A stretch of 64,000 nt of DNA. Origin: Curvularia clavata (lineage: Eukaryota). Below are positions 5,844 through 46,515 of this stretch, piece by piece. A model generated the notes under the pieces. The model worked only from the letters and a program-made list of their open reading frames with translations. It did no database searches and was not told the origin of the DNA. The translations under genes were made by a program, and so were the position numbers. The first letter of the stretch is position 1; the number at the start of each line of letters is the position of its first letter. Location: positions 1,860,001 to 1,924,000 of the forward strand of contig CP089277.1 in assembly GCA_023920165.1 (NCBI GenBank), in the 5' to 3' direction.

Positions 5844-6459
5844 GTTTGTGTGATGATAGAGAGAAATTCTACACAGACTAGGCCTGGGGATTGTTAAAGC
5901 TAATTCCTGGCCTCTGGGGATCGAAGAGCTGGTTAGCAGTGGAGGTGGCGAGGAGACGGATGACGTAGTCCGCCCTCGGAACGCAGATCGTCCGTCTAGA
6001 CCGGACAAGATGACATCCCCGTCCAACCATATTCTTTTATTTGCTGACAGCCTGTGTCCGCGTGGAAACATACAAAGTAAGTTGACGCATTTCACTGTAC
6101 ATGTGTTTTTCGGGAATTTTGAAGACCTTGCGTCCTTTGAACGAGATGCTTGACAGAGATACATGAGTCTGCTCAACATTCTCTTCTGTCTCAATTTTGG
6201 GGGCTACTAACCACTACTTTTCTTATTCATTTAAGATCCATGGTGGAGAGAAATCGTCGTTGTGCTACCGACTTAAAGATCTCAACGCAATGTCTCGTTT
6301 CGCGGTTCACAATCATGCCAAGGTGCTGAGCGGACTCGGCCCCTCGACTCATCACATCTTACACATTTCATGTCACGTCACCTTCACTCTACATTTCTTG
6401 TAGCTCATCCACCCCTGAACACCCCTCGTAGAAGCGATTTGATATAGACCAAAAACACG

Positions 6460-7812
6460 ATGCCTCCACAACTCAAGACGCCAAAGGGCACCCGAGACTG
6501 GCATGGCGAGGATATCACTTTGCGCAACGACACCTTTGCTCAGATGCGCAAAGTGTTCCGGCTCCACGGCGGCGAGGAAATAGATACACCTGCATTTGAG
6601 TTAAAGAGTTACTTGACTGGGAAATATGGGGAGGACACTAAACTGATATACGACTTACAAGACCAGGGTGGCGAGATTTGTGCGCTGCGCTACGACTTGA
6701 CTGTACCATTTGCCCGCTGGCTAGGAATGCACAATACTCGAGCTATCAAGCGATTTCAGATTGGCAAAGTCTACCGTAGAGATCAGCCAGCGCTGAAGCA
6801 GGGGCGTATGCGAGAGTTTTTCCAATGCGACTTCGACTACGCTGGTCAGTGCGACCTGATGGTGGCAGACTCGGAAGTTGTTTGCATCGCAGCTGAGGTC
6901 TTCGAAGCGCTTGGGATACTCGTTGTCATCAGGACCAACCACCGTCTCATCTTGGACGGTATATTCGCGGCCGTAGGCGTCCCGAAAGATCTCATACGGC
7001 CCATTAGTTCGGCAGTCGACAAACTTGACAAGCTCTCCTGGGAAGAAGTGAAAAAAGAGATGGAAGAGAAAGGTCTTGATGCGAGTGTTGCGGCCAGACT
7101 AGGTGAGTATGTGCTGCACGACAAAGCATCGGACACCAACTCCACGCTGGAATTCCTCAAATCAGATGTGCTCCTCTCAACACGCCGGGATGTGCAACAA
7201 GGTGTGAAAGAGATGGAACTGCTTGTCAGCTATCTGAGAGCATACAATGTTGCCAGCTACGTCCAACTTGATCTCTCTCTGGCACGGGGACTAGATTACT
7301 ATACTGGTCTGATATACGAGGTTGTCGCAACAAATCAGAAAGGCACCTCGGTTGGTAGCATCGCCGCCGGAGGCCGGTACGACAAACTTGTAGGCATGTT
7401 CAGCAACCGCGATGTCCCATGTGTAGGTATATCATTTGGCGTTGATCGTATTCTTGCTATCATAGAGAGTAGGAAACAAAAGGATGCGGCCGTTCCAAAT
7501 CGCAAAGTCAACGTCTGGATTGTCATTGCGTCAGACAATGTCAGGTTGGTCGAACAACGCATGGCAATTGCGCGAGAGCTTCGATCCGCAGGCATCAGCG
7601 TCGACTTTGACGCAAAAGCCGACAAGAAACCACGAAAGCAGATGGAAGTTGCTGAAAAGAGCGCAGCTGTTGTAGTGTTCTTGGAAGAAGACACAGCCTC
7701 ACAAAGTACACGAGTCAAGGTGCTTTCACTGCCAGACAAGACTCCTGACCACATAGCAATTATCGAGCGCCAAAATCTGGTTGACGAAGTAAAACAACGC
7801 CTCACACAATAG
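6460..7812 (+). CDS. HTS1: Histidyl-tRNA synthetase (class IIa), intronless, divergent, probably a second paralogue
   Basis: LKTPKGTRD, LRYDLTVPFAR, motif 2 KVYRRDQPA...GRMREFFQCDFD, LARGLDYYTG, AAGGRYD, motif 3 GISFGVDRI, C-terminal anticodon-binding domain. Confidence 0.92.
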   Translation: MPPQLKTPKGTRDWHGEDITLRNDTFAQMRKVFRLHGGEEIDTPAFELKSYLTGKYGEDTKLIYDLQDQGGEICALRYDLTVPFARWLGMHNTRAIKRFQIGKVYRRDQPALKQGRMREFFQCDFDYAGQCDLMVADSEVVCIAAEVFEALGILVVIRTNHRLILDGIFAAVGVPKDLIRPISSAVDKLDKLSWEEVKKEMEEKGLDASVAARLGEYVLHDKASDTNSTLEFLKSDVLLSTRRDVQQGVKEMELLVSYLRAYNVASYVQLDLSLARGLDYYTGLIYEVVATNQKGTSVGSIAAGGRYDKLVGMFSNRDVPCVGISFGVDRILAIIESRKQKDAAVPNRKVNVWIVIASDNVRLVEQRMAIARELRSAGISVDFDAKADKKPRKQMEVAEKSAAVVVFLEEDTASQSTRVKVLSLPDKTPDHIAIIERQNLVDEVKQRLTQ

Positions 7813-35790: not shown

Positions 35791-36087
35791 CGGGGTTTCT
35801 TGTGATTTACTTGTTTTGTTCTGTTGAAGGAGCATGCAGATTACGAATAAATACAGAATGACTAGTTATGGATTATTTTAGTATATCGCAACTAGAGCAG
35901 TCAACAAAGTAGTCCAACACAAGCACGTGCTATGACGCAGCATTCGCGCTAGCGGCAGCGGCCCGTGCCATGCCTGCCGATGCGGAGTTGAAGCCACACC
36001 TCCGAAAGAAAGTCTACTATTACGACGGCTACCCATTCGTCCCATTTCTATGAACGATGCACGTGTGACCCGAACCTTGTATCTAGT

Positions 36088-37170
36088 ATGCCTGTGCAAA
36101 CACACAGGCGCAGCTCTAATGAGCTTATCCATTCGCCCGGCTTTCTCGGTGCTGTAGCACGCTTTTGGCAGGTGTGTGGTCTTGTCAACATCCTGGGCCT
36201 TTTGAAAGCTAACAGGGCCTTTTGGGGTACAAGTAGCGCTCGTATGCTTCGGATTATGTTGGAATAGCGATGCTAGTATGCGGATACATAGGAGTACGTG
36301 GACAACAAGACTAAAAGGCCAGGATACTGGGAAACATACTTACACACTCTGCAGCTACAATTGTTCGCCGAACCCTTCCATCGCATGTTCTTCCTCGATA
36401 ACCTCGCTATCAACTACCCCCATGCCGAAATCGAGCGTGTGTCCGTAGCCTGGCTGTTCATCTACGCGGGGGCCGTGCCCCTTGGCATACTCGTCGTATG
36501 GGCACTCGCATTCCGCCCAGGGACACACAAAGCGCACGTCACCATCCTCGGGCTGGTGATCAGTCTGATCCTCACGAGCTTCATCACGGACGTGATCAAG
36601 AACGCCGTCGGTAGACCCCGACCAGACCTCATTGCACGATGCAAGCCCGCGCCTGGCACGCCCGCCCACCAGCTCGTCACATACGAAATTTGTACCGAAA
36701 CCGACCATCATACCCTGCATGACGGGTGGCGCAGCTTTCCCAGCGGGCATAGCAGCTTCGCCTTCAGCGGCCTAGGATACCTTTCCCTCTTTATCGCTGG
36801 CCAATGCCACGTTTACCGTCCCCGCGCCGACCTCGCTCGCGTCTTGTTAGCCCTCATGCCCCTACTCGGCGCCGCTCTCATCGCCATCTCCCGCTGTGAA
36901 GACTACAGACACGATGTTTATGACGTTACTGTCGGATCGCTAATTGGAATGACGATTGCCCATTACACATACAGGAGGTATTATCCTGCGCTAAGGCACC
37001 GGCTGTGTGCTACGCCGTTCCCTAATCCAGCGGATGATAAGGGGTGGGGGAAGGTCAAGGGAGATGAGGAGAGTTTGAGGGATGTGCAGGAGTTTGAGTT
37101 GAGTGAGTTTGAGGAGGAGGGGGAAGAGAGTGAGGGGAGGTTGTTGAATGGAGGGAGAAGACAGGCTTGA
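36088..37170 (+). CDS. DPP1: PAP2-family lipid phosphate phosphatase (Dpp1/Lpp1-like); introns 36172-36236, 36294-36354
   Basis: C1 KNAVGRPRP, C2 SFPSGHSS, C3 SRCEDYRHDVYD; several TM helices. Confidence 0.88.
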
Positions 37171-37467
37171 TGAGTACGTGGTGATATTAACTCTTCATGA
37201 TTTGGATGAAGGTGTTGAATGCCTGCAAAAACAACCCATAGGTCATGTAGACGGGCAGAAACCTAGGGCTCGCAGTTGTAAGGCACTGGCTGTTTGTTTA
37301 GTCTCCGTAGAGGGCCAAACGGTATTTTTCCTATGATTACGACCTGTGGAGTTAGATGACTTGAAGTAATCGTTAGCGACTTCAGTAACGAAGCTGAACA
37401 ATTGTAGAAAATCGTAGTTGATGGGGTATGTGCAAACAACTACGCAGAACTCAAAACATTTTCAGGC

Positions 37468-40400
37468 TCACGACACGTCTCCCCGGTGTCTCCTCCTCAT
37501 CTCATTCTCTATCTCCAAACTCATATCCCGGCCTATCCCGTCCCCGTACTCATTCCTTAGCACATTGACAATGTACGATGCTGCATTCAATCTCGGACTC
37601 ATTGGCGTAGCCCAATCACCGCCGCCACGGAACAGGATCGTCGGATCGAGGTTTCTGAAGCGCGGAGCTGTGTCGCATTCAGTAGAAAGTAGGTGCCGTA
37701 GGGTTGAGTGCATGCCATCAACCTTCTTGAGATGCTTTTCAATCTTCTTTTCAAAACACATAGGACGTTGGCGGGCAAATTCTAAAACTAGGCCGGCGAT
37801 GCCGGCGGCAATGGGTGTTGCACACGACGTCCCGGCGAGCCGCTTCCACCCCGTCTCTGGTTCTTCAGTGGGGAGATCGAGGGGCCAGGTTGATCGGACC
37901 GCCTGACCTAAGGCTGTGAGGCGATCTCCTTTTTGCTTTGCTCCGGTGGGATTGCTTCCCAGTGGGCGGCCATTCACGTCTGCCGCGTCGATAGCGATAA
38001 CTTCAAGTGCGCGGGCTGGATAAGCCATTCCGGCTTTGGTTCTTAGGCCGTCATTTGAGCTGGCTGCAAATATGAGTACGTTGCTGACGCGAGCATGCAG
38101 CAATGCATTTTCTAGCTCGTCTTCACTGTTGTCTTCCCAACCCAGACTCATACTAATGATATCGACTTTCTTCTTGTCGACTGCATCGAGAATCGCGTCC
38201 GCGACGTGTTTCTTATCAATGTGGCTGCTTCCGTCACAGACTCGGTACACGTATACGTCTGCGTATGGGCAGACGGTTAGAATCAGGCCAGCCGCGTGGG
38301 TTCCATGTCCTTTGCTATCTACATTCCAAGGTAGGGACGGATCTAGCACTTTACCAATCTTGACTCTTGGACCTTTCATGAGGGAGGGCACTGGGCCTTT
38401 TGCTGTGCTCTTGGCTACGCCTGTGTCGAGAACGGCGATTCGAACGCGTCGAGCGGCTTTTGTCATGTCGAAGCAGTCGTCCCGGTACTGGTCTAAGAAG
38501 ACGTGTGTTTTGCTCTGAAGACGGTCGAACCACTCGTCTGCTATGATTTCGCTATATAGGGTCAACAAGATGCATGGATATTTTTGGTAAATTCGTGACT
38601 CACTCTCTATCGCTCCAGTCTTTGCTGTGAGGGACTGGCTTCGACGTCGATATCGGTCTTGGGATATCTACCGATGCAGACCGTCTATGTCCTGTGCCGC
38701 TTGGTTGCGTCACACGTAATCCACCTTGACTGAGTACGTCATTTGAGCGTGATTTTCGCAATTTTTGATTGGAATCCGGTTCATCAAAATCTTGATGCCA
38801 GCCTCCTGGAATAACGTGCTCTCTTTGTCCTGCGTTGAGAGTCCCTGTGCTATGAACATGGATTTGTTCTGGTTGTAGGACCGTATCCAAGGGCTGATCT
38901 TGATCAGGCTTTACAATAGAGGAAGTACTATCAGTCTGGCATGTCTTCGCTGCTGAAGATGGTTGATGACCATCTTCATTTCCTGGGTTGGCAGATTCAA
39001 AACACTCAAGGGCATCTACCCAAAGATACGTGGTTTGGCGCTCGTCCTCGGCTGGCATCGGTTTGGAGTCGGGTATTGACTTCTCTGTAATTGACTTGTC
39101 TAGCGGTTCAATCAGATCTGCGGTCCAGTTGTCTGTCCGTTTTCTTTTAGACTTTTCAGAAGACTTTTCAGAAGAATGTGAAGGCGGTGTCTCTATCCCG
39201 GTACCACTCAACAGAAGAGAATTTCTCCTCGTACTCCTTTCAGCATTTGACTTGTGCTTTGAGATCTGCTCGACATCATTCTCGATCTTTGGCGGCAACG
39301 ACACTCGCGCGGAGTCACTAGATCTAGACCGTCGCTCTTTTCTTTTCGCAATATCTCTATCCACGATACGGAGGGGTGAAGGGACTTCATGGTAATGCGA
39401 CTGAGAGCTTCCCGGCCTCTCCCTCTCGTGCCGGTTTTTGGGTCTCGGTTTCACACTGTCTGGAAGCTGTGTCTGCTGCCTATGCTCCGGTCCTGATAGA
39501 ACTATAGAAGGGGCAGCAGGAATCTGTGAAGCTTTTTCTTCGCCTGAAACCTCCTTTTTTCGTGATTTTCCCTTATTGCTCTGTTCCTCTTGTTTCATCT
39601 CCAGGCTAGAGTGTTGTTCTTTTGAAGCAGTGGGGCTCGTGACCAGATTAATTACATCCGATTCATGCCTTCTATCCGCTGGCTGTGTGCCTGGAGTGGA
39701 GCCTCTGCGGGACTTCTTCTTCTCAGGTTGCGTTGTTGGCATTGAATCCATTTTCTCTCGCTGAGTTTTGCTGTCACTTAGAGCTGAGCATGCTGACTCC
39801 TTATGTCTTGTGGACTTCCCATCTAGTTTCACATCTTTGGGCACTATTGAGCCATCCTTGTAATCACTGGTGCGTTTTGTTCTGCTCACATCGCTTCTAG
39901 TAGAATTCGATCGTTGCATCTTTTTCAATCCAGTCTCAGCTGTACTATGAGGTGAGAGAGTTTCAGAAGCCGAGTGTGGACGAATCGGCAGATCGTGCTT
40001 TGCCTCAGGCTTCTTTGGGGATTTCGACACATCCTTAGGGCGTGGAGATTCGGACTTTGAAGTCTGCTTCGGAGGACTTTTGGATGGCTGGTCGGTAAAG
40101 TGCAGTTCCGGGGTTGCTACTGAAGCAGTCTTTGTATTGTCGGCCTTCTGCTTCGTGCTCGAATGATGCTCATCTGGGCCATCTACTGTACCACGTTTCT
40201 TTGGCTTAGTAGGGGTTTGGCTCGCTTCCTTTATAGGTTCAGACGTCCTTCTTTGCTGTTTCGTTCGCGAGCTTGTCTCAGCGACTTGACGCCGGGTTTC
40301 TTCACCAAGCTTTTCTTGCGTCAATTCTTGGTCGGTTGTATTGCCTGTATGTTTGGGTTGCTTTGGAGTATCTGGAACGCGTGACCTCTGATTTTCTTGA

Positions 40401-41338
40401 ACTTCAGGCGATTCTACCTTTCCGGGCTGTTCGCCCTGATTCTTTTTGTCCGTCTTGTGTGCAGATCCACTCGTCTCTTTTCCTTCCCTAACCACATGTT
40501 TCTTCTCCTCCACTTGTTTTTGTAACTGTCTTCGGATTTTTTCCGCCTTTTTCAATTCTTCCTGTTGCAGAGCAATCTTTTTTGAGCAGTTGCGTAGGGA
40601 TTTTTTGGTTTTCTCGAGATAGATATGGTATTCAGGCGCAGATCTTGCCTGGCATTCGCTTGCTTCCAAAATCTTCAATAGTTCTTTTAATTTGTCAGAA
40701 GCATCACCATACTTGGACAGAGCGTATAACTCTCTTGCGAGGTTGAACCGGATCTTCACAGTCTCGATATGACTTTTGCCTAGATTTTTATCCGCATCCT
40801 GCAGCGTTTCAACGTTCAGATTCACTGCTCTCATAATGTTCCGGTCTGAACCAGATTCGAACAAAGCTGAGGCAAGATCTGCGCGGTCCTTGTAGAGCTC
40901 TTCCCGAGATTGATCTCCCGAGTCTATGACTTTCTCATACACGTATATCGCCGCGGAAAACCTTTTATCTGCCAGGTATGTTTCTGCTAGCTGACGTTGA
41001 GCATATAAATGCCGTTCTATTGCAAGTCTGATAAGATCTTTGGGCGAGTGCTGCAGCCGATGTTGTTTTAAGTTTTCCAGAGTCCAGTCAGCGTTTCTCG
41101 AGTGGCAGATGGTGGCCTCGGCAAGGTTGCCTGTGTTTCTGACGCTGTCTGCCCAACGTTCACGTAGAGTCAGTGTTTTCTCATCCAGATTTCCCCAGTG
41201 CTTCTCAGCTAGCTTGACTGCCTCTCCATAAGCATTCGCTGCTTCTTCAAGGAGTCGTTGATCTCCATCTTCTGCTCTTCTCTCGAGATCCATAGCTTTT
41301 TCGCCGAGCGCGTCGATCCGTTCATCTATACTCTTCAT
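37468..41338 (-). CDS. TPR-like + disordered linker + S8 subtilisin-like serine protease (HET-Q2-like), about 1272 aa; intron 38552-38603
   Basis: ORFs 38600-41338 and 37468-38568 join in phase 2 through GTGAGT...TTGAC...TAG; catalytic RIAVLDTG (D), GHGTHAAG (H), AASSNDG (oxyanion N), GTSCATP (S); kinesin-light-chain-like TPR helices ([32 protein letters not shown]); no signal peptide. Confidence 0.9.
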
Positions 41339-41837
41339 ATCGTAAACTGCCAGGCATCTGAATCATAAAGCCTTGCAGCCTCATGAGAAAAGCAAGCCAG
41401 GTGAGTGTGGTGTATAGTCGAGTCAATACCTCCCGCAACAATCCCTACACACTCTACCTACTTTCGCTTTCCTTGAAGAAACCCCAACCTCAAATAATTG
41501 AGAAGTCGATAATGAGTGCCGACTCGGGCAGCATGTCGCTCCTAGAAAGAAGCTGTTCCATGATTGTCAGCTTAATAAGAGAAGGCGATCAGGCTGCCAT
41601 GAGGGTGGGGGCTGAAAGCTCGCCTGTATGTCCCATATAGGTCAAGCGAATATGCAACTGCTCAGCGCATAACGCCGGATCAATTTCCATTGTTGATCAG
41701 CCCATGACGATTTGAGCACAGCCCATTTATCGATAAACGCCAGCCTTCTCATTTACAGCTTGCCGCGTTCGCACCCAGCCAGACCGAGTGGGCTGTATAG
41801 CTTCAAACTTCATTGCAATGCTAGCTCTATCTTCCAC

Positions 41838-42607
41838 ATGCCTGTACTTCCTGTTGCACCCCAGAGCCAACCATGGATAACGAATCGAACAGATGGTGAG
41901 ACAAATACCGAATCATGCGCATTTGTCACCATCTCGCCTCGAAGATTCGCTTTACGGACGCCGCCCACGCCATCGCTTGCCGCGGAAGTAGAGATCGAGA
42001 CAAGCCCAAGTAGCCCAACAACTCAGAAACCGTCTAACGAGGTTATCGGTGGTGCATTCATAGGCGCATTCCTTGGAGCTCTGTTGTTGATCTTCTTGTT
42101 GAGATATTGTTGTGGAGGTGGTCGCGAACCCAGTGAAGATGGCTCCACAGACTCCAGCCTGAAGTCGTCGAAAGGCCCTCCACCAGCTCCTCAACCCGTT
42201 TACCAAGTACCTCCAGCACCCAACAATCCGACAGGTGGTTATGCAGTTCCCGGAGTTCCAAATCCTAAACCTATTTATCCATATACCGCGTCGAGGCCAG
42301 TTGAACACTCGCGGGTGTCTACACAACGACCTAGGGGGAGTATCACAATAGCCGAAGTCAAAGGAAGACCGAATTGGATTCGACGGAATCCAAGACCTCG
42401 CCGCCCCAAACCTCATAGTGCAGCCGGTTCCGAATCAACATCTAGCTCGAGCGACAGACGCAGACGGAGAGTATGGTTTCCCCCATCCCGATATTATACA
42501 GCTCACATACTAAAGTCAAATGACAGTCTTCAAGGCGCGGCGATGGAGTCCGAATTGTCGAGTTGGACGTGCCCAGAAACCTTGGGTACCTGCATTCGGC
42601 GACGTAA
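41838..42607 (+). CDS. Single-pass membrane protein with Pro/Arg-rich cytosolic tail; probable intron 42471-42526
   Basis: Ser/Thr/Pro-rich N-part, TM VIGGAFIGAFLGALLLIFLL followed by RYCC, PPPAP repeats; GTATGG...CTAAA...CAG intron gives about 237 aa (the unspliced frame ends at 42626). Confidence 0.6.
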
Positions 42608-42892
42608 TCAGGGACGGAAGATCTGATACGTATGATTGGATATTCGACCATGAAAGAATTACAATCAACTTGCTGTAACTGGACGGATATTCCAGGACAT
42701 TCCATCTCCCTAGTGGATCAGAACAGATTCAGAGCCGTTCGCAGTTCGAAAATTGCCCCGTACGCTAGATCATGCATTACACGTCACCCTGCATCTTCAT
42801 GCATATGTCGGATTCAAGGCGCGGTTGCCTATTCACTATTACCTCGTATATTTAATGGCTTAGTACATTGAACCGGTCCCGTAAAGCACGCC

Positions 42893-43753
42893 ATGTCGAA
42901 ATACAAGCCAACCTACTTCCTCACTCCGCCTCGCCCCTCGCCCCCAGATGGCCCTATCCGTCTTGGTGCAATTATCCCTTCGCCTGCTCAACCTGACGAA
43001 CCTTTATACTTGCCATCTCTTCCTGAGTCGACTGATACTAGTACCTTCACGGAATATAACTGGACCGGCTCTTACGTCAAAGCTTCATCGTCCCACTTTG
43101 GCATCTGGACCTCATTCCTTGAAGTGGTACTCGGCGTAGGCGCAGATGTCGGTGTCGAGCTTGATAAGTCACTGGAGAGAAAATGGGACGTGGAGCGGAT
43201 GACGACGCAGACTTTTCTGCCCAGCCGATCCTTCTTGGAGCAAGTAGTTCAGCATGAGGATGTAAAGCGGTACATCATCGAGAATCGTTTTAGAGAAAAG
43301 GTGTACATGATTACAGGCGTCATGATTGCCTCTTCGTCTACTGTGTCGAGCGAGAAATTACAGGAATGTGGTGTGTACGTCCATGCTGGTGTGGATGCGA
43401 CGGCTTGGGCTGGTGTTCCCATATCAGTGGGCCCTGAGGGAAAGTGGAAGCAGAAAAAGGAGACCCGGGAGTCGAGCCGACGGCCCGATGAATTCGTCTT
43501 TGCGTATAGGATTAGGCAAATCAAGATTGGAAGAAAAGGTGAGATCAAGTCGGAAAAAGTGTACGATAAGGGTGCTTTGTTCGATACGCACCGCGAGAGG
43601 GCCACGCGAGATATAGGTGAGATGGAATTAGAGGGCTTGGGTGACGAGGCGGATATTGAAGATATTGAGCTAGAAAGTAGAGAAGTGAGGCAAGAGATGG
43701 GAGGTGGGCAGGAAGAAGAGTTTTTGTGCGTTCTTCCAGAGCCACTCGATTGA
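42893..43753 (+). CDS. Fungal gasdermin (HET-Q1/RCD-1-like pore-forming protein), 286 aa, intronless
   Basis: TYFLTP...PPDGPIRLGAIIPSPAQPDEPL N-terminus, TQTFLPSRSFL, VYMITGVMIA, amphipathic beta hairpins, EFVFAYRIRQI, YDKGALF, then an acidic 56-aa tail; adjacent to an S8 protease. Confidence 0.88.
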   Translation: MSKYKPTYFLTPPRPSPPDGPIRLGAIIPSPAQPDEPLYLPSLPESTDTSTFTEYNWTGSYVKASSSHFGIWTSFLEVVLGVGADVGVELDKSLERKWDVERMTTQTFLPSRSFLEQVVQHEDVKRYIIENRFREKVYMITGVMIASSSTVSSEKLQECGVYVHAGVDATAWAGVPISVGPEGKWKQKKETRESSRRPDEFVFAYRIRQIKIGRKGEIKSEKVYDKGALFDTHRERATRDIGEMELEGLGDEADIEDIELESREVRQEMGGGQEEEFLCVLPEPLD

Positions 43754-44752
43754 AGAGCTGGGTGTTGGAGTCAAAAAGGAAGCTGGGTATGGCAAAGGAT
43801 ATTTGGTCATCAGGATTGTACCGGATGAAAATATTCTACCGAAAGTTTTCATATTTTTCTCCACAAAGCCCCTTTCACTTCATGCTGTATAGAGAAAAAT
43901 CAAGGCTTGAATAGAATCTTCCCAGATATGGAGCTAGAAGAATTGAAACATCGCTTTTACTAATCACTTGTCCTATCTACCATGCTTGGCAGCTCTTTCC
44001 ATAGTGTATTTTTCTCTGTTTCATTATCCTTTTTTTTCCATTGTTTTGGTTCAAAGCTATTTTGATCAAAGAGATCTTACCCAGGACTTCTATGATAGCT
44101 CTGGGATCTCTCACTGATGTTTGTTTTTGGTCAAATATCTTAGCACGAGCCCTCTGAATTGTATGCGCGCGAGTCTTTCTACAGACAGTTCTTAGTACCC
44201 TATGCATCTAAAACTTACGGAGAACAGTACACCATCGATAGGAATTCTGCTGATGGATGGGCCGAAGTGATCAGCTTACCACTGCTCCCACCCAACACAA
44301 TTACAATGGTACCTCGGCGCACTCTTGTGTTTGAAGAGGTGCTACAAGGACGTTTCTATGAGTAGCTACCATTTTGTCTGGTCATTATGAAAATTTCTTT
44401 GCACCCATGTTTCAGGTGGGACTGCATATGTGAGCATCGTCAAGAGTTCGGCCGAGATGTGATGTACTCTGATGAATCGTTTCAGCATTTGTAGTCTGTT
44501 ACTTCAAGTATGTGGCAAGTGTATGTCTATTGGATTTAAGACGAATAAGCAAATCTGAACAGGTACGAGATAAAGTAAATTCACCGCCCTCGTAGCGCTA
44601 ACTTTGTTCCTGAACCAAAGCAGCGACATATCTGCTAGGTCCCTCGCTACGGCCTGGTCCCACTCTCTCACTCACCACACTGTAAATTTTGCAATTTTCT
44701 CGCCACTCATCCAACAAAGAGATCAGCTGGTCTCAAACAACAATCTGAAAGA

Positions 44753-44772
44753 TAGCATCGGTGGTTTAGTGG
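44753..44772 (+). repeat. Exact 20-bp copy of the tRNA-Gly 5' end and 2 upstream bases (TAGCATCGGTGGTTTAGTGG)
   Basis: Identical to 44847-44866. Confidence 0.9.
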
Positions 44773-44848
44773 AACATATTCTCAGCTGTCCGCTCCTTCC
44801 TCCATCGAACAACCAGCTCCTGCCTGGTTTGCCTTTCGACCATCAGTA

Positions 44849-44943
44849 GCATCGGTGGTTTAGTGGTAAAATTAGCCGTTGCCATTCATCTCTTCGAGAC
44901 GAGCGACGTCGGCTAGCCCCGGGTTCGATTCCCGGCCGATGCA
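44849..44943 (+). tRNA. tRNA-Gly(GCC) with 24-nt intron (44885-44908)
   Basis: Acceptor GCATCGG/CCGATGC+A, A box TGGTTTAGTGG, anticodon stem AGCCG/CGGCT around TTGCCAT, B box GGTTCGATTCC, T5 Pol III terminator at 44947-44951. Confidence 0.96.
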
Positions 44944-45124
44944 TCCTTTTTGCGGTGGCGTCCTACTGAGTTAGAGGTCGTAGAGCTGGTTTTTTTTTTT
45001 GCTGTTCTGGTCCGTCTGGAAGTACCACAGAAGGAGGACTCAACAAGCAACATGCGATGGAGAGACCGCGGTTCGGTGAGTTCATTCCAACAATACTCGA
45101 TTCGAATCCAACTAACAGCGAATA

Positions 45125-45141
45125 GATTCCCGGCCGATGCA
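45125..45141 (+). repeat. Exact 17-bp copy of the tRNA-Gly 3' end (GATTCCCGGCCGATGCA)
   Basis: Identical to 44927-44943. Confidence 0.9.
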
Positions 45142-45323
45142 GGGACTTTGTAAGATGCATGAAACGGGATGTGCGATATTCGGGATATCATCGGAGTGAC
45201 GTTCAACGCTGGTTCATTCACAGGCATGAAATGTCTCCTTGCACTGCCTGTCTTGCAGGTCTGAGCGGGTGCAAATGTCAAAATAATCATGTGAATATGA
45301 CGCCGATGTGTGCTCATGACTGA

Positions 45324-46515
45324 TCACTCTTGGTCTTGTTCTTCATCCTGCTCTTGCTCCTCTTTCGTATCCTCTTTTCTGTCCTCATCTTCTGCAGGCA
45401 TAGTGACTGGAAATGAAAGATGCTTCCAGTCCTCAATCTACAATACGTCAGCACGCATAAGGGACAAAGAACCTTAGTACACACCTCTTCGGTTATACTT
45501 TTCATGCGATCTCGGATGCTCTCTACGGCATAGCTACCCAGAATTAATCGCAGTGGAGGGTAGCTGCAATGACCTAATTGCCAGACTAGCTCAGCACTTT
45601 TTACAGCGCTCACAGGCTGCCTGTCATTCAGCCACTGCACCATACGTCGCGCATGTTGTGCGGGACTGGTCAGACTAGCATACGGTTCGCTTGGGTTTGG
45701 TTTTACGGAGAAGTGACCATATCGCTTTGGCCTAGGGGGTCCTTCTCCCAAGGCTGCAGGAGCGATATAGTTTGGTGGAAACATGTTGTCATCTGGCTCA
45801 TCCAGTCGGACATGACCGGGTTCGACCAGTGTAGCTTTGATATTGAAAATGTCCACTTCGTACAACATAGACTCTATGAGTCCCTCGACAGCGTACTTTG
45901 TCGCGCAATATGGGCCCAGTCCCGGTACGCCGAGCGCTCCAGCTGTGGAAGAGAATATGAGATAACGTCCAGAGTTTTGGGCGCGAAAGTATGGAAGTGA
46001 CAGCTGGATGATATGGAGTGTACCAAGGAAGTTGGTGGTAAATTGGTTACGGAGGTCATAATCGTCCTGGTCTTCGCATGCTGCTATGACGCCATATCCG
46101 GTGCTGTTCGCTATAACGTCCACCTGCCCCCAGTGTTCGACGCTCTTCTTGATAACCCAGTCGACCGTATCTCGTACTCTGACGTCGCAAAGCAGGCCTA
46201 AACAGTTCATGTTCTGCCACTTGTCCATTTGTTCTGGTGTGTTCTCTTGGGTCCATCCAACTGCGGTACATTGGTCGCCGTGTGCGAGTATTGATCTAAC
46301 CAGGGATCGCCCTATATGGCCGGTCGCTCCGAAGACCTATGAATGAGGGTCAGTCATGGGGCATGTTTGTAAACGGACGGGTATCTTACAATCCATACTG
46401 CCCGTTTCGGGGGATTGTTTTCAGATGGCGGGTCGCAAGTCGCAGGCAACGTGAGATTAGCATTATGAATCGCTGCGCCTGGAGAGAGGCTCTGGCTCAG
46501 CGTATCGAAGTCCAT
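45324..46515 (-). CDS. Short-chain dehydrogenase/reductase; introns 46337-46389 and 45438-45484
   Basis: AVWI|VFGATGHIG, LCDVR, SSTAG, YCATKYAVEG (YxxxK), TLVEPG, PPLRLILG. Confidence 0.88.

Follow-up and report, generated by a model that had tools for sequence, protein, structure and literature searches.

A catalogued type of gasdermin and TPR-led S8 protease cluster in Curvularia clavata with a conserved, expressed and apparently undescribed third gene

The window analysed here is a 64,000-nucleotide stretch of the fungus Curvularia clavata (positions 1,860,001 to 1,924,000 of contig CP089277.1, assembly GCA_023920165.1), and its positions 37,468 to 43,753 carry a gasdermin gene, a divergently transcribed gene for a subtilisin-like S8 protease led by a tetratricopeptide repeat (TPR) domain and, between the two, a small gene for a single-pass membrane protein. 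The locus genuinely belongs to the catalogued class of gasdermin/TPR-S8 clusters and adds to it a third gene that is conserved, expressed and apparently undescribed. The pairing is already in print, and the middle gene appears to be the new part.

The sequence-only reading, made earlier from the letters of the window, had placed a single-pass membrane open reading frame (ORF) between the gasdermin and the protease. That ORF is real, although its extent has to be revised. Unspliced, it runs for 262 codons from its ATG, a length reached in none of 1000 base shuffles of the interval, but an intron at 42471-42526, whose joint appears in three of the four sequencing runs compared, gives a product of 237 amino acids (aa); a 53-nt intron is predicted at the corresponding place in the related loci L011 and L013. 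Only a guessed RNA label, or none, is attached to these runs, yet such spliced joints show that they contain mRNA-derived sequence. In comparison with L011, the proportions of non-synonymous (pN) and synonymous (pS) differences are 0.40 and 0.79, the latter saturated, with 84, 74 and 120 changes at codon positions 1, 2 and 3, and the TPR domain has a pN of 0.35 in the same comparison. All three membrane-gene variants listed among near-identical runs are synonymous. The middle gene is confirmed as real, spliced, transcribed and under purifying selection.

The encoded protein consists of 68 S/T/P-rich N-terminal residues, one hydrophobic helix, a Cys-Cys pair and a basic disordered tail, with net charges of -2 and +14 on the two sides of the helix. 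No signal peptide is seen, there being one hydrophobic segment only, with 68 aa before it. General rules, on which such readings rest, suggest that the N-terminus is outside or lumenal and the tail cytosolic, and that the cysteines are probably palmitoylated. No Pfam family reaches its cut-off, either in the window protein, where only Mucin15 is matched (E 0.01), or in any of nine homologues. A profile of 15 family sequences finds 458 library proteins at E<=0.001; among 146 of these examined, 126 are no longer than 330 aa, 110 have a Cys pair or an aromatic-Cys pair after the helix, and four have a signal-peptide-like N-terminus by a crude test. For P0252, a distant family member, the window ORF is the best match in the 32-Mb genome (E 2e-6 vs 4e-3 for the next), and one copy of the gene was found there. 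In the Atlas, the protein lies nearest to three unnamed Ascomycete clusters (0.87-0.89), which are leads only.

The right-hand gene is confirmed, by sequence and fold, as a fungal gasdermin of the RCD-1/HET-Q1 type. As the sequence-only reading had it, this is an intronless ORF of 286 aa with the gasdermin pattern: 42893-43753 on the forward strand is a single open frame, the quoted motifs are found, and the RNA contigs compared hold no splice joint within it. Homologues occur in the Pleosporales and other ascomycetes. Among solved structures, the sequence matches RCD-1-1 (E 3e-13) and HET-Q1 (E 0.008), and a 37-sequence profile matches RCD-1-1 at E 3.5e-28 and the HET-Q1 pore chain at E 1.6e-15; in Pfam the protein has no match of note and none to a gasdermin family. 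The AlphaFold2 (AF2) model (pLDDT 68.8; below 50 for residues 231-286) supports the gasdermin fold with its two long beta-hairpins, as its top Foldseek matches are the RCD-1 pore 8jyz (E 1e-13) and then bacterial and animal gasdermins. HET-Q1 is described, in the parts of the sources consulted, as cut after F238, with L237 and F238 both required (PMC8851545, PMC13475620). The window residues L229-F230 fall within one residue of the HET-Q1 pore-chain end by a hand count from the aligned FAYR motif, and G227 and A228 are kept in at least 90% of the 37 homologues, which is consistent with a cut after F230. Between 42986 and 43664, five of the six gasdermin variants listed among the compared runs are non-synonymous, compared with none of four in the S8 exon and none of the membrane gene's three; with so few variants, selection cannot be claimed. 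The short gasdermin entries of Alternaria clusters are N-terminally late gene calls and do not demonstrate truncation alleles.

The left-hand gene starts at ATG 41338 on the reverse strand, extends through a first exon of 911 codons to 38604 and, past the intron at 38603-38552, through a second exon (38551-37468), and encodes 1272 aa; the intron joint is present in three of the four runs, and the database protein P0056, entered under the name Curvularia clavata and equally 1272 aa long, agrees with the S8 part at 100%. The catalytic domain matches Pfam PF00082 (E 2e-22) and subtilisins of the PDB (E 3e-14), with D954, H994, N1078 and S1154 aligned to the catalytic and oxyanion motifs and all intact. 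The best N-terminal 15-mer has a hydropathy of 0.21, a crude test rather than a signal-peptide prediction, and the N-terminus folds as TPR helices, so that the protease is predicted to be intracellular. The intact D/H/N/S residues and the missing signal peptide thus agree with the earlier reading, as does the spacing of about 1.55 kb: the start codons of protease and gasdermin are 1554 nt apart, under the 10 kb used for pairing, and S8 genes adjoin gasdermins in many loci. With sequence, fold and intact S8 residues all in its favour, the claimed module of a gasdermin and a HET-Q2-like S8 protease stands.

Pfam TPR_12 matches the N-terminus of the protease at E 6e-5, under the curated cut-off, and is found in 9 of the 12 nearest longer relatives, self match excluded. 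The AF2 model of aa 1-284 has a pLDDT of 95.6 and 12 helices, and its best Foldseek match is a Podospora TPR domain of the kinesin light chain (KLC) type, 4y6c (E 3e-6), followed by LGN and KLC1/2. Among these closest matches are structures of KLC and LGN domains determined together with linear peptides, one of which derives from the membrane protein calsyntenin. No NACHT/NB-ARC or other P-loop family was found by Pfam in P0056 or exon 1, which sets the protein apart from protease-bearing NOD-like receptors (NLRs). About 110 aa before the catalytic Asp, the linker contains a Trp-plus-acidic motif of the PGGW type (38786-38809, aa 844-851), and a PG.W-like motif is discernible by eye in 12 of 32 related sequences. 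The motif presumably resembles the W-acidic motifs that bind TPR domains, and it could serve as an internal autoinhibitory ligand. That it tracks the membrane gene was rejected, as it is absent in L024, L025, L027, L032 and L035.

One metagenome scan, seeded with 23 gasdermins of the window clade, gave 63 loci forming 39 groups at 90% identity, of which 28 were informative in having at least 1350 nt upstream. The membrane ORF is found in 10 of the 28 groups, 0.4-1.3 kb from the gasdermin start, co-oriented with it in nine and inverted in one, and the gasdermin identity in the positive groups is 27-77%. Since these ORFs were initially chosen by position, their homology was tested by leaving out clades in turn. 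The omitted ORFs were found again at E 5e-10 to 3e-5, the exceptions being L024 (0.03) and L019 (0.04), which is broken. The window ORF is found at E 5e-7 by a profile from which the window clade was excluded, and no off-site match under E 0.01 arose among 8505 frames in the 612 kb searched. A profile of 83 library cores, some of them proteins of these loci, gave the identical 21 matches. Sorted by protease architecture, the membrane gene is present in eight of ten groups with a TPR-led S8 protease and in none of 12 with another architecture (seven S8-first NLR-like or S8-then-TPR, three DUF7580-S8, two S8 with an unannotated N-terminus); the protease is undefined or undetected in four more negative groups, and the contig of the positive group L030 is too short to reach it. 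The three genes occur together beyond the window, and a flanking PAP2 gene is shared with two related groups. The Alternaria protease orthologues have locus tags consecutive with those of their gasdermins, and Alternaria-like contigs nevertheless hold an intact middle ORF.

In a gasdermin tree of 37 rows, with one or two per group and very short loci left out, nine positive groups and the window fall in a 17-row clade of weak support (83/82) that also includes the negative groups L026, L031, L034 and L038, while the positive L040 lies outside. This placement reads as an ancestral three-gene cluster with losses rather than independent gains. In L019-L021 the three genes decay jointly: the gasdermin is missing its start and is interrupted by a stop at codon 185, the reading frame of the protease is disrupted, and the membrane ORF is shortened. 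These loci occupy the same PAP2/methyltransferase site as the window, with a dehydrogenase fragment between PAP2 and the protease, and other records hold a longer, 268-aa form of their membrane protein, P0244.

Several observations weigh against a dedicated role of the middle gene in these clusters. The scan was seeded from the window's own gasdermin clade, and the correlation with TPR-led proteases follows gasdermin phylogeny, the clades being related and not independent. L034 and L062 are TPR-led clusters without the membrane gene, their start codons 336 and 392 nt apart, and the gene is therefore dispensable. Conversely, in L040 it stands beside a gasdermin with no S8 match in the 8 kb flanks; here (L040:6440-8885) the gene is inverted and divergent from the gasdermin, and similar proteins include the Penicillium entry P0258. 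The genomic context of most of the 458 library matches is not known, P0276 and P0255 match unrelated longer membrane ORFs first and do not find the window ORF, the transmembrane (TM) motif being generic, and conservation of the tail is weak past close relatives.

Table 1. Features of the three-gene cluster (window positions; + forward strand, - reverse strand).
Feature	Position	Strand	Remarks
Protease exon 2, S8 subtilisin-like domain and C-terminal extension	37468..38551	-	Pfam S8 about 38448-37771
S8 residues	D954 at 38427, H994 at 38307, N1078 at 38055, S1154 at 37827	-	Positions computed by hand
Protease intron, 52 nt, GT..AG	38552..38603	-	Restores frame; joint 38551/38604 in runs X15, X19, X5
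Low-complexity basic linker, about 625 aa (aa 285-911)	38604..40486	-	70% P/E/S/K/Q/T/R/D, net +19
N-terminal TPR domain, aa 1-284, KLC-like, long terminal helix	40487..41338	-	Pfam, AF2, Foldseek
Probable short bidirectional promoter between protease and rightward transcript(s)	41553..41757	.	In X5, last contig position 41552 and next contig start 41758; one depth-2.9 contig 41608-41758
Membrane gene exon 1, aa 1-211	41838..42470	+	TM hydropathy 2.57; homologues; pN/pS vs L011
TM helix, aa 69-88, GAxxGAxxG	42042-42101	+	Followed by Cys91-Cys92 and Pro/Ser/Arg-rich tail
Membrane gene intron, 56 nt, GT..AG	42471..42526	+	Joint in runs X15, X19, X5
Membrane gene exon 2, 26 aa and TAA at 42605-42607	42527..42607	+	RNA contigs; full protein 237 aa
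Transcribed spacer, 285 nt	42608..42892	+	Conserved DNA motif about 42770-42807; TATA-like run 42847-42855
Gasdermin pore-forming domain, aa 1-230	42893..43582	+	Ends G-A-L-F230, predicted cut site; RCD-1/HET-Q1 matches
Acidic C-terminal tail, 56 aa, and stop	43583..43753	+	Net -15, predicted inhibitory by analogy to HET-Q1 A239-A277

The membrane gene, the spacer and the gasdermin are joined on one contig in X5 (41758-43953) and in X15 (41814-43963), and in X19 they lie on two contigs with a break near 42750-42765, between the two genes; such contigs do not fix transcript starts, strand, level or single-transcript status, and regions uncovered in X19 and X20 were not counted as absence. Polycistronic transcripts have been reported from filamentous fungi, in the excerpts at hand. 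Upstream of the gasdermin start lie 14 ATGs, which, together with the conserved motif and TATA-like run of the spacer, favour overlapping transcripts with a separate gasdermin promoter over a bicistronic mRNA. The spacer motif is common to L010, L015, L018 and L022, weak in L011 and not seen in L017, and the spacer is suggested to be the gasdermin promoter, the 3′ end signal of the membrane gene or both. Within it, an open frame of 87 codons (42608-42871) is in phase with the spliced membrane ORF and the gasdermin, with two stops between. This frame is not conserved in other loci and was taken as chance. A read-through fusion of the two proteins was rejected, as the frame relation varies among loci, the spacer frames hold stops and no variant affects the stops among the rows listed.

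By homology to experimentally tested pairs, the S8 protease very probably cuts the gasdermin and so brings about pore-driven death. In the proposed sequence of events, cleavage by the cytosolic protease after F230 would free the acidic tail, and the N-terminal domain of the gasdermin would form membrane pores that kill the compartment. For the third gene, the tentatively preferred reading is a membrane adaptor or sensor that acts through the TPR domain on the protease, because the presence of the gene follows that of TPR-led proteases and because linear peptides are ligands of TPR domains of this type. The KLC-like TPR domain would bind the disordered tail of the membrane protein and so bring the long-tethered protease to the membrane, where it would be licensed once a signal at the surface or membrane has led to clustering or modification of the membrane protein. 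A complex prediction for TPR aa 1-275 and tail aa 140-211 gave a score of 0.01, computed without alignments and with controls not folded, and counts neither for nor against such binding. A narrower and more doubtful version sees the product of the middle gene as a dedicated miniature palmitoylated sensor: it would respond to disturbance of the wall or membrane, or to the enzyme of an attacker, and its tail would switch the TPR-S8 protease.

The direction of control might be the opposite, with the membrane protein as a guard or inhibitor that restrains an otherwise active protease until an attacker removes, cleaves or modifies it. Transcripts of both gasdermin and protease occur in the same RNA sets, and the pair must therefore be kept in check by something; the short HET-Q2, without a long N-terminus, kills upon co-expression, and the co-occurrence data fit this arrangement equally well. 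L034 and L062, however, keep both the TPR-S8 protease and the gasdermin with no such gene nearby, and the long N-terminal region may autoinhibit by itself, as Clavé assumed for the TPR-CHAT protein Q2L-6. A guard seems unlikely. Much the same low probability is assigned to a passenger, that is, a real and co-regulated small membrane gene of the ancestral cluster, inherited by linkage and without a role in death. The gene is absent from 18 of the 28 informative groups, the positive loci lie mostly in the one weakly supported clade, and the many similar small TM proteins in the library are mostly without known context. On the other hand, it has been retained beside gasdermins as little as 27-40% identical while the flanks changed, as well as after inversion in L040, one copy was found in the window genome, and the gene decays jointly with its two neighbours in L019-L021.

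A direct partnership with the gasdermin is improbable. In this reading, the basic tail would attach to the acidic gasdermin tail or to the pore domain and, with no involvement of the TPR domain, would position, prime or block the gasdermin at the membrane. The opposite charges of the two tails (net +14 and -15), the short distance to the gasdermin start in every positive locus, the co-orientation in nine of ten groups, the persistence in L040 and the joint RNA contig all fit it, but charge complementarity is non-specific, HET-Q1 and RCD-1 form pores in reconstitution free of partners, and the 0 of 12 in non-TPR clusters would be left unexplained. Least probable is allorecognition of the het-Q type, with death after fusion of strains that differ in parts or alleles: beyond the family precedent and the very small numbers of non-synonymous gasdermin variants, no evidence was found for the role that the sequence-only reading had entertained, as gasdermin and protease, unlike those of het-Q, lie on one haplotype and are both transcribed, at least half of the words of the stretch occur in 18 of the 22 listed runs (runs found by choice, absence elsewhere not being judged), and near-identical runs vary little and give no hint of divergent alleles.

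According to the parts of Clavé 2022 (PMC8851545) consulted, an S8 gene lies next to 63% of 1884 fungal gasdermins, and TPR belongs to the domains commonly added to HET-Q2-like proteins. The same paper, in Datasets S1 and S2, lists the Alternaria gaisen pair KAB2101014/KAB2100880, labelled TPR and Peptidase_S8. KAB2100880 is identical to P0225 and aligns end to end with the window protease at 36% identity, so that the orthologous pair and the TPR architecture were in print before, and the TPR-led protease is not the undescribed variant suggested earlier. In the sections seen, the clusters of Clavé 2022 are two-gene clusters, the 'three-gene clusters' being a gasdermin with two proteases, and no TPR-S8 pair is among those tested experimentally; the main text as seen mentions no transmembrane or membrane protein and no third gene, while the SI Appendix and figures may mention intervening genes. 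The literature searched, with thin coverage of subscription journals, describes no membrane gene in fungal gasdermin clusters, and to that extent the three-gene layout, with a middle gene found here to be conserved, spliced and under selection, is undescribed as proposed. Accession gaps in Dataset S1 are a weak sign of an annotated middle gene and were not counted. In parts 4-5 of 13, with multi-protease Myriangium rows and one Zopfia pair excluded, 16 Dothideomycete S8 pairs have a gap of 2-3 and two a gap of 1; they include three full TPR-S8 proteins (gap 2), seven unrelated architectures, six S8-only fragments that are window-clade-like by eye (four gap 3, two gap 2) and a Westerdykella TPR-S8 at gap 1. 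Distant members of the membrane family could not be tied to gasdermins by accession, Fusarium torulosum being outside Dataset S1 and Aureobasidium THY66474, nine accessions from a listed gasdermin, uninformative.

Compared with the characterised systems, the window pair shares the gasdermin fold, the Leu-Phe cut site, the short C-terminal tail and the S8 triad with Podospora HET-Q1/HET-Q2. The Podospora genes, however, are idiomorphs in different strains, whereas those of the window are linked and found in the same RNA runs, and the catalytic Asp is residue 35 in HET-Q2 but residue 954 here, behind the TPR domain and the long linker. Neurospora RCD-1-1/RCD-1-2 are the best sequence and structure matches of the window gasdermin. 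As described in the portions consulted, RCD-1 acts independently of cleavage and needs two allelic variants, in contrast to the window gasdermin with its 56-aa tail and linked protease.

The third protein, with its S/T-rich segment, Gly-rich TM helix and disordered tail, is reminiscent of Mid2/Mtl1/Wsc sensors and Pin2-like single-pass proteins. The Mid2 and Wsc sensors are defined by a signal peptide and a long S/T-rich ectodomain, whereas the window protein is much smaller, has no signal peptide and about 68 aa before the helix, and matches neither Pfam Mid2 nor WSC at cut-off. Its Atlas match to PSI_induc_2 at 0.80, the nearest named Atlas clusters of the homologue P0243, which are Mid2/Mtl1 (0.90, only 116 shared features), and a Pfam Mid2 match of P0252 under the cut-off (E 0.005) are leads, not memberships. 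The protein presumably also resembles palmitoylated transmembrane adaptors such as LAT.

The cluster lies in a 32.4-Mb genome of 8 contigs, flanked on the left by methyltransferase, short-chain dehydrogenase and PAP2 genes and on the right by a tRNA, a second dehydrogenase and MMM1 (Pfam, Rfam). The earlier description of the cluster as inserted among housekeeping genes holds loosely for the flanks, which are ordinary genes, and not for the insertion: the PAP2 neighbour is common to two related locus groups (L011; L019/L021), so that the site is old, and a recent island was rejected, the GC content also resembling the rest of the window. RNA contigs show joints for two introns in the PAP2 gene (36170-36354). 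The tRNA, the sole Rfam match in 36000-46000, contains an intron (44849-44943) and has an anticodon unassigned by ARAGORN and Gly-like by eye; exact copies of two of its parts lie nearby (region 44755-45141), one of 18 nt, from its 5′ end, at 44755 and the other of 17 nt, from near its 3′ end, at 45125. In L011 and L013 the gasdermin is followed, after about 0.76 kb, by a tRNA-Ala, and none of the window's right-flank genes has a match in any locus retrieved, so that this side looks like a tRNA-marked synteny break.

The window genome holds a second gasdermin of 28% identity (G000:C2:451.7-455 kb; L002, L003), tail to tail with a DUF7580-S8 protease gene and with no membrane-gene homologue alongside, and a third, weaker S8 match (G000:C3:527.5-528.1 kb; L008) with no gasdermin match in the 3.6 kb examined. 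In L039, a SLATT_fungal two-TM effector gene (5949-6719; E 5e-12) and a gasdermin are divergently arranged, and an S8 gene follows downstream. The gasdermins of L038, L048, L052, L057, L065 and L067 adjoin S8-first NLR-like genes of the NACHT/NB-ARC type, which also carry WD40, ankyrin or TPR if the contig extends that far; this layout is already described in the parts of Clavé 2022 (PMC8851545) at hand.

A linked het-q1/het-q2-like pair of Coccidioides is reported to be required for the developmental death of disjunctor cells (bioRxiv 10.64898/2026.10.27.762035). Its protease is of the CHAT type and the passages at hand mention no third gene; the case as given there shows that gasdermin-protease pairs need not serve defence. 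The stimuli that activate the sensors controlling fungal gasdermins are named as a major open question in the part consulted of a 2025 review (PMC12881547), and a conserved third gene that accompanies one particular protease architecture offers a concrete candidate for an input to the gasdermin pathway. As the Alternaria clusters illustrate, with their intact middle ORF between consecutive locus tags, surveys of annotated proteins can miss such components. Should the gene prove a passenger, the locus would be an ordinary member of a catalogued class. If the sensor reading is true, the three genes of the cluster, transcribed together, would make up a cascade of membrane receptor, protease and pore that has escaped notice because the small gene is usually missed by gene callers, and the hundreds of unnamed Ascomycete proteins of its family could mark further clusters.

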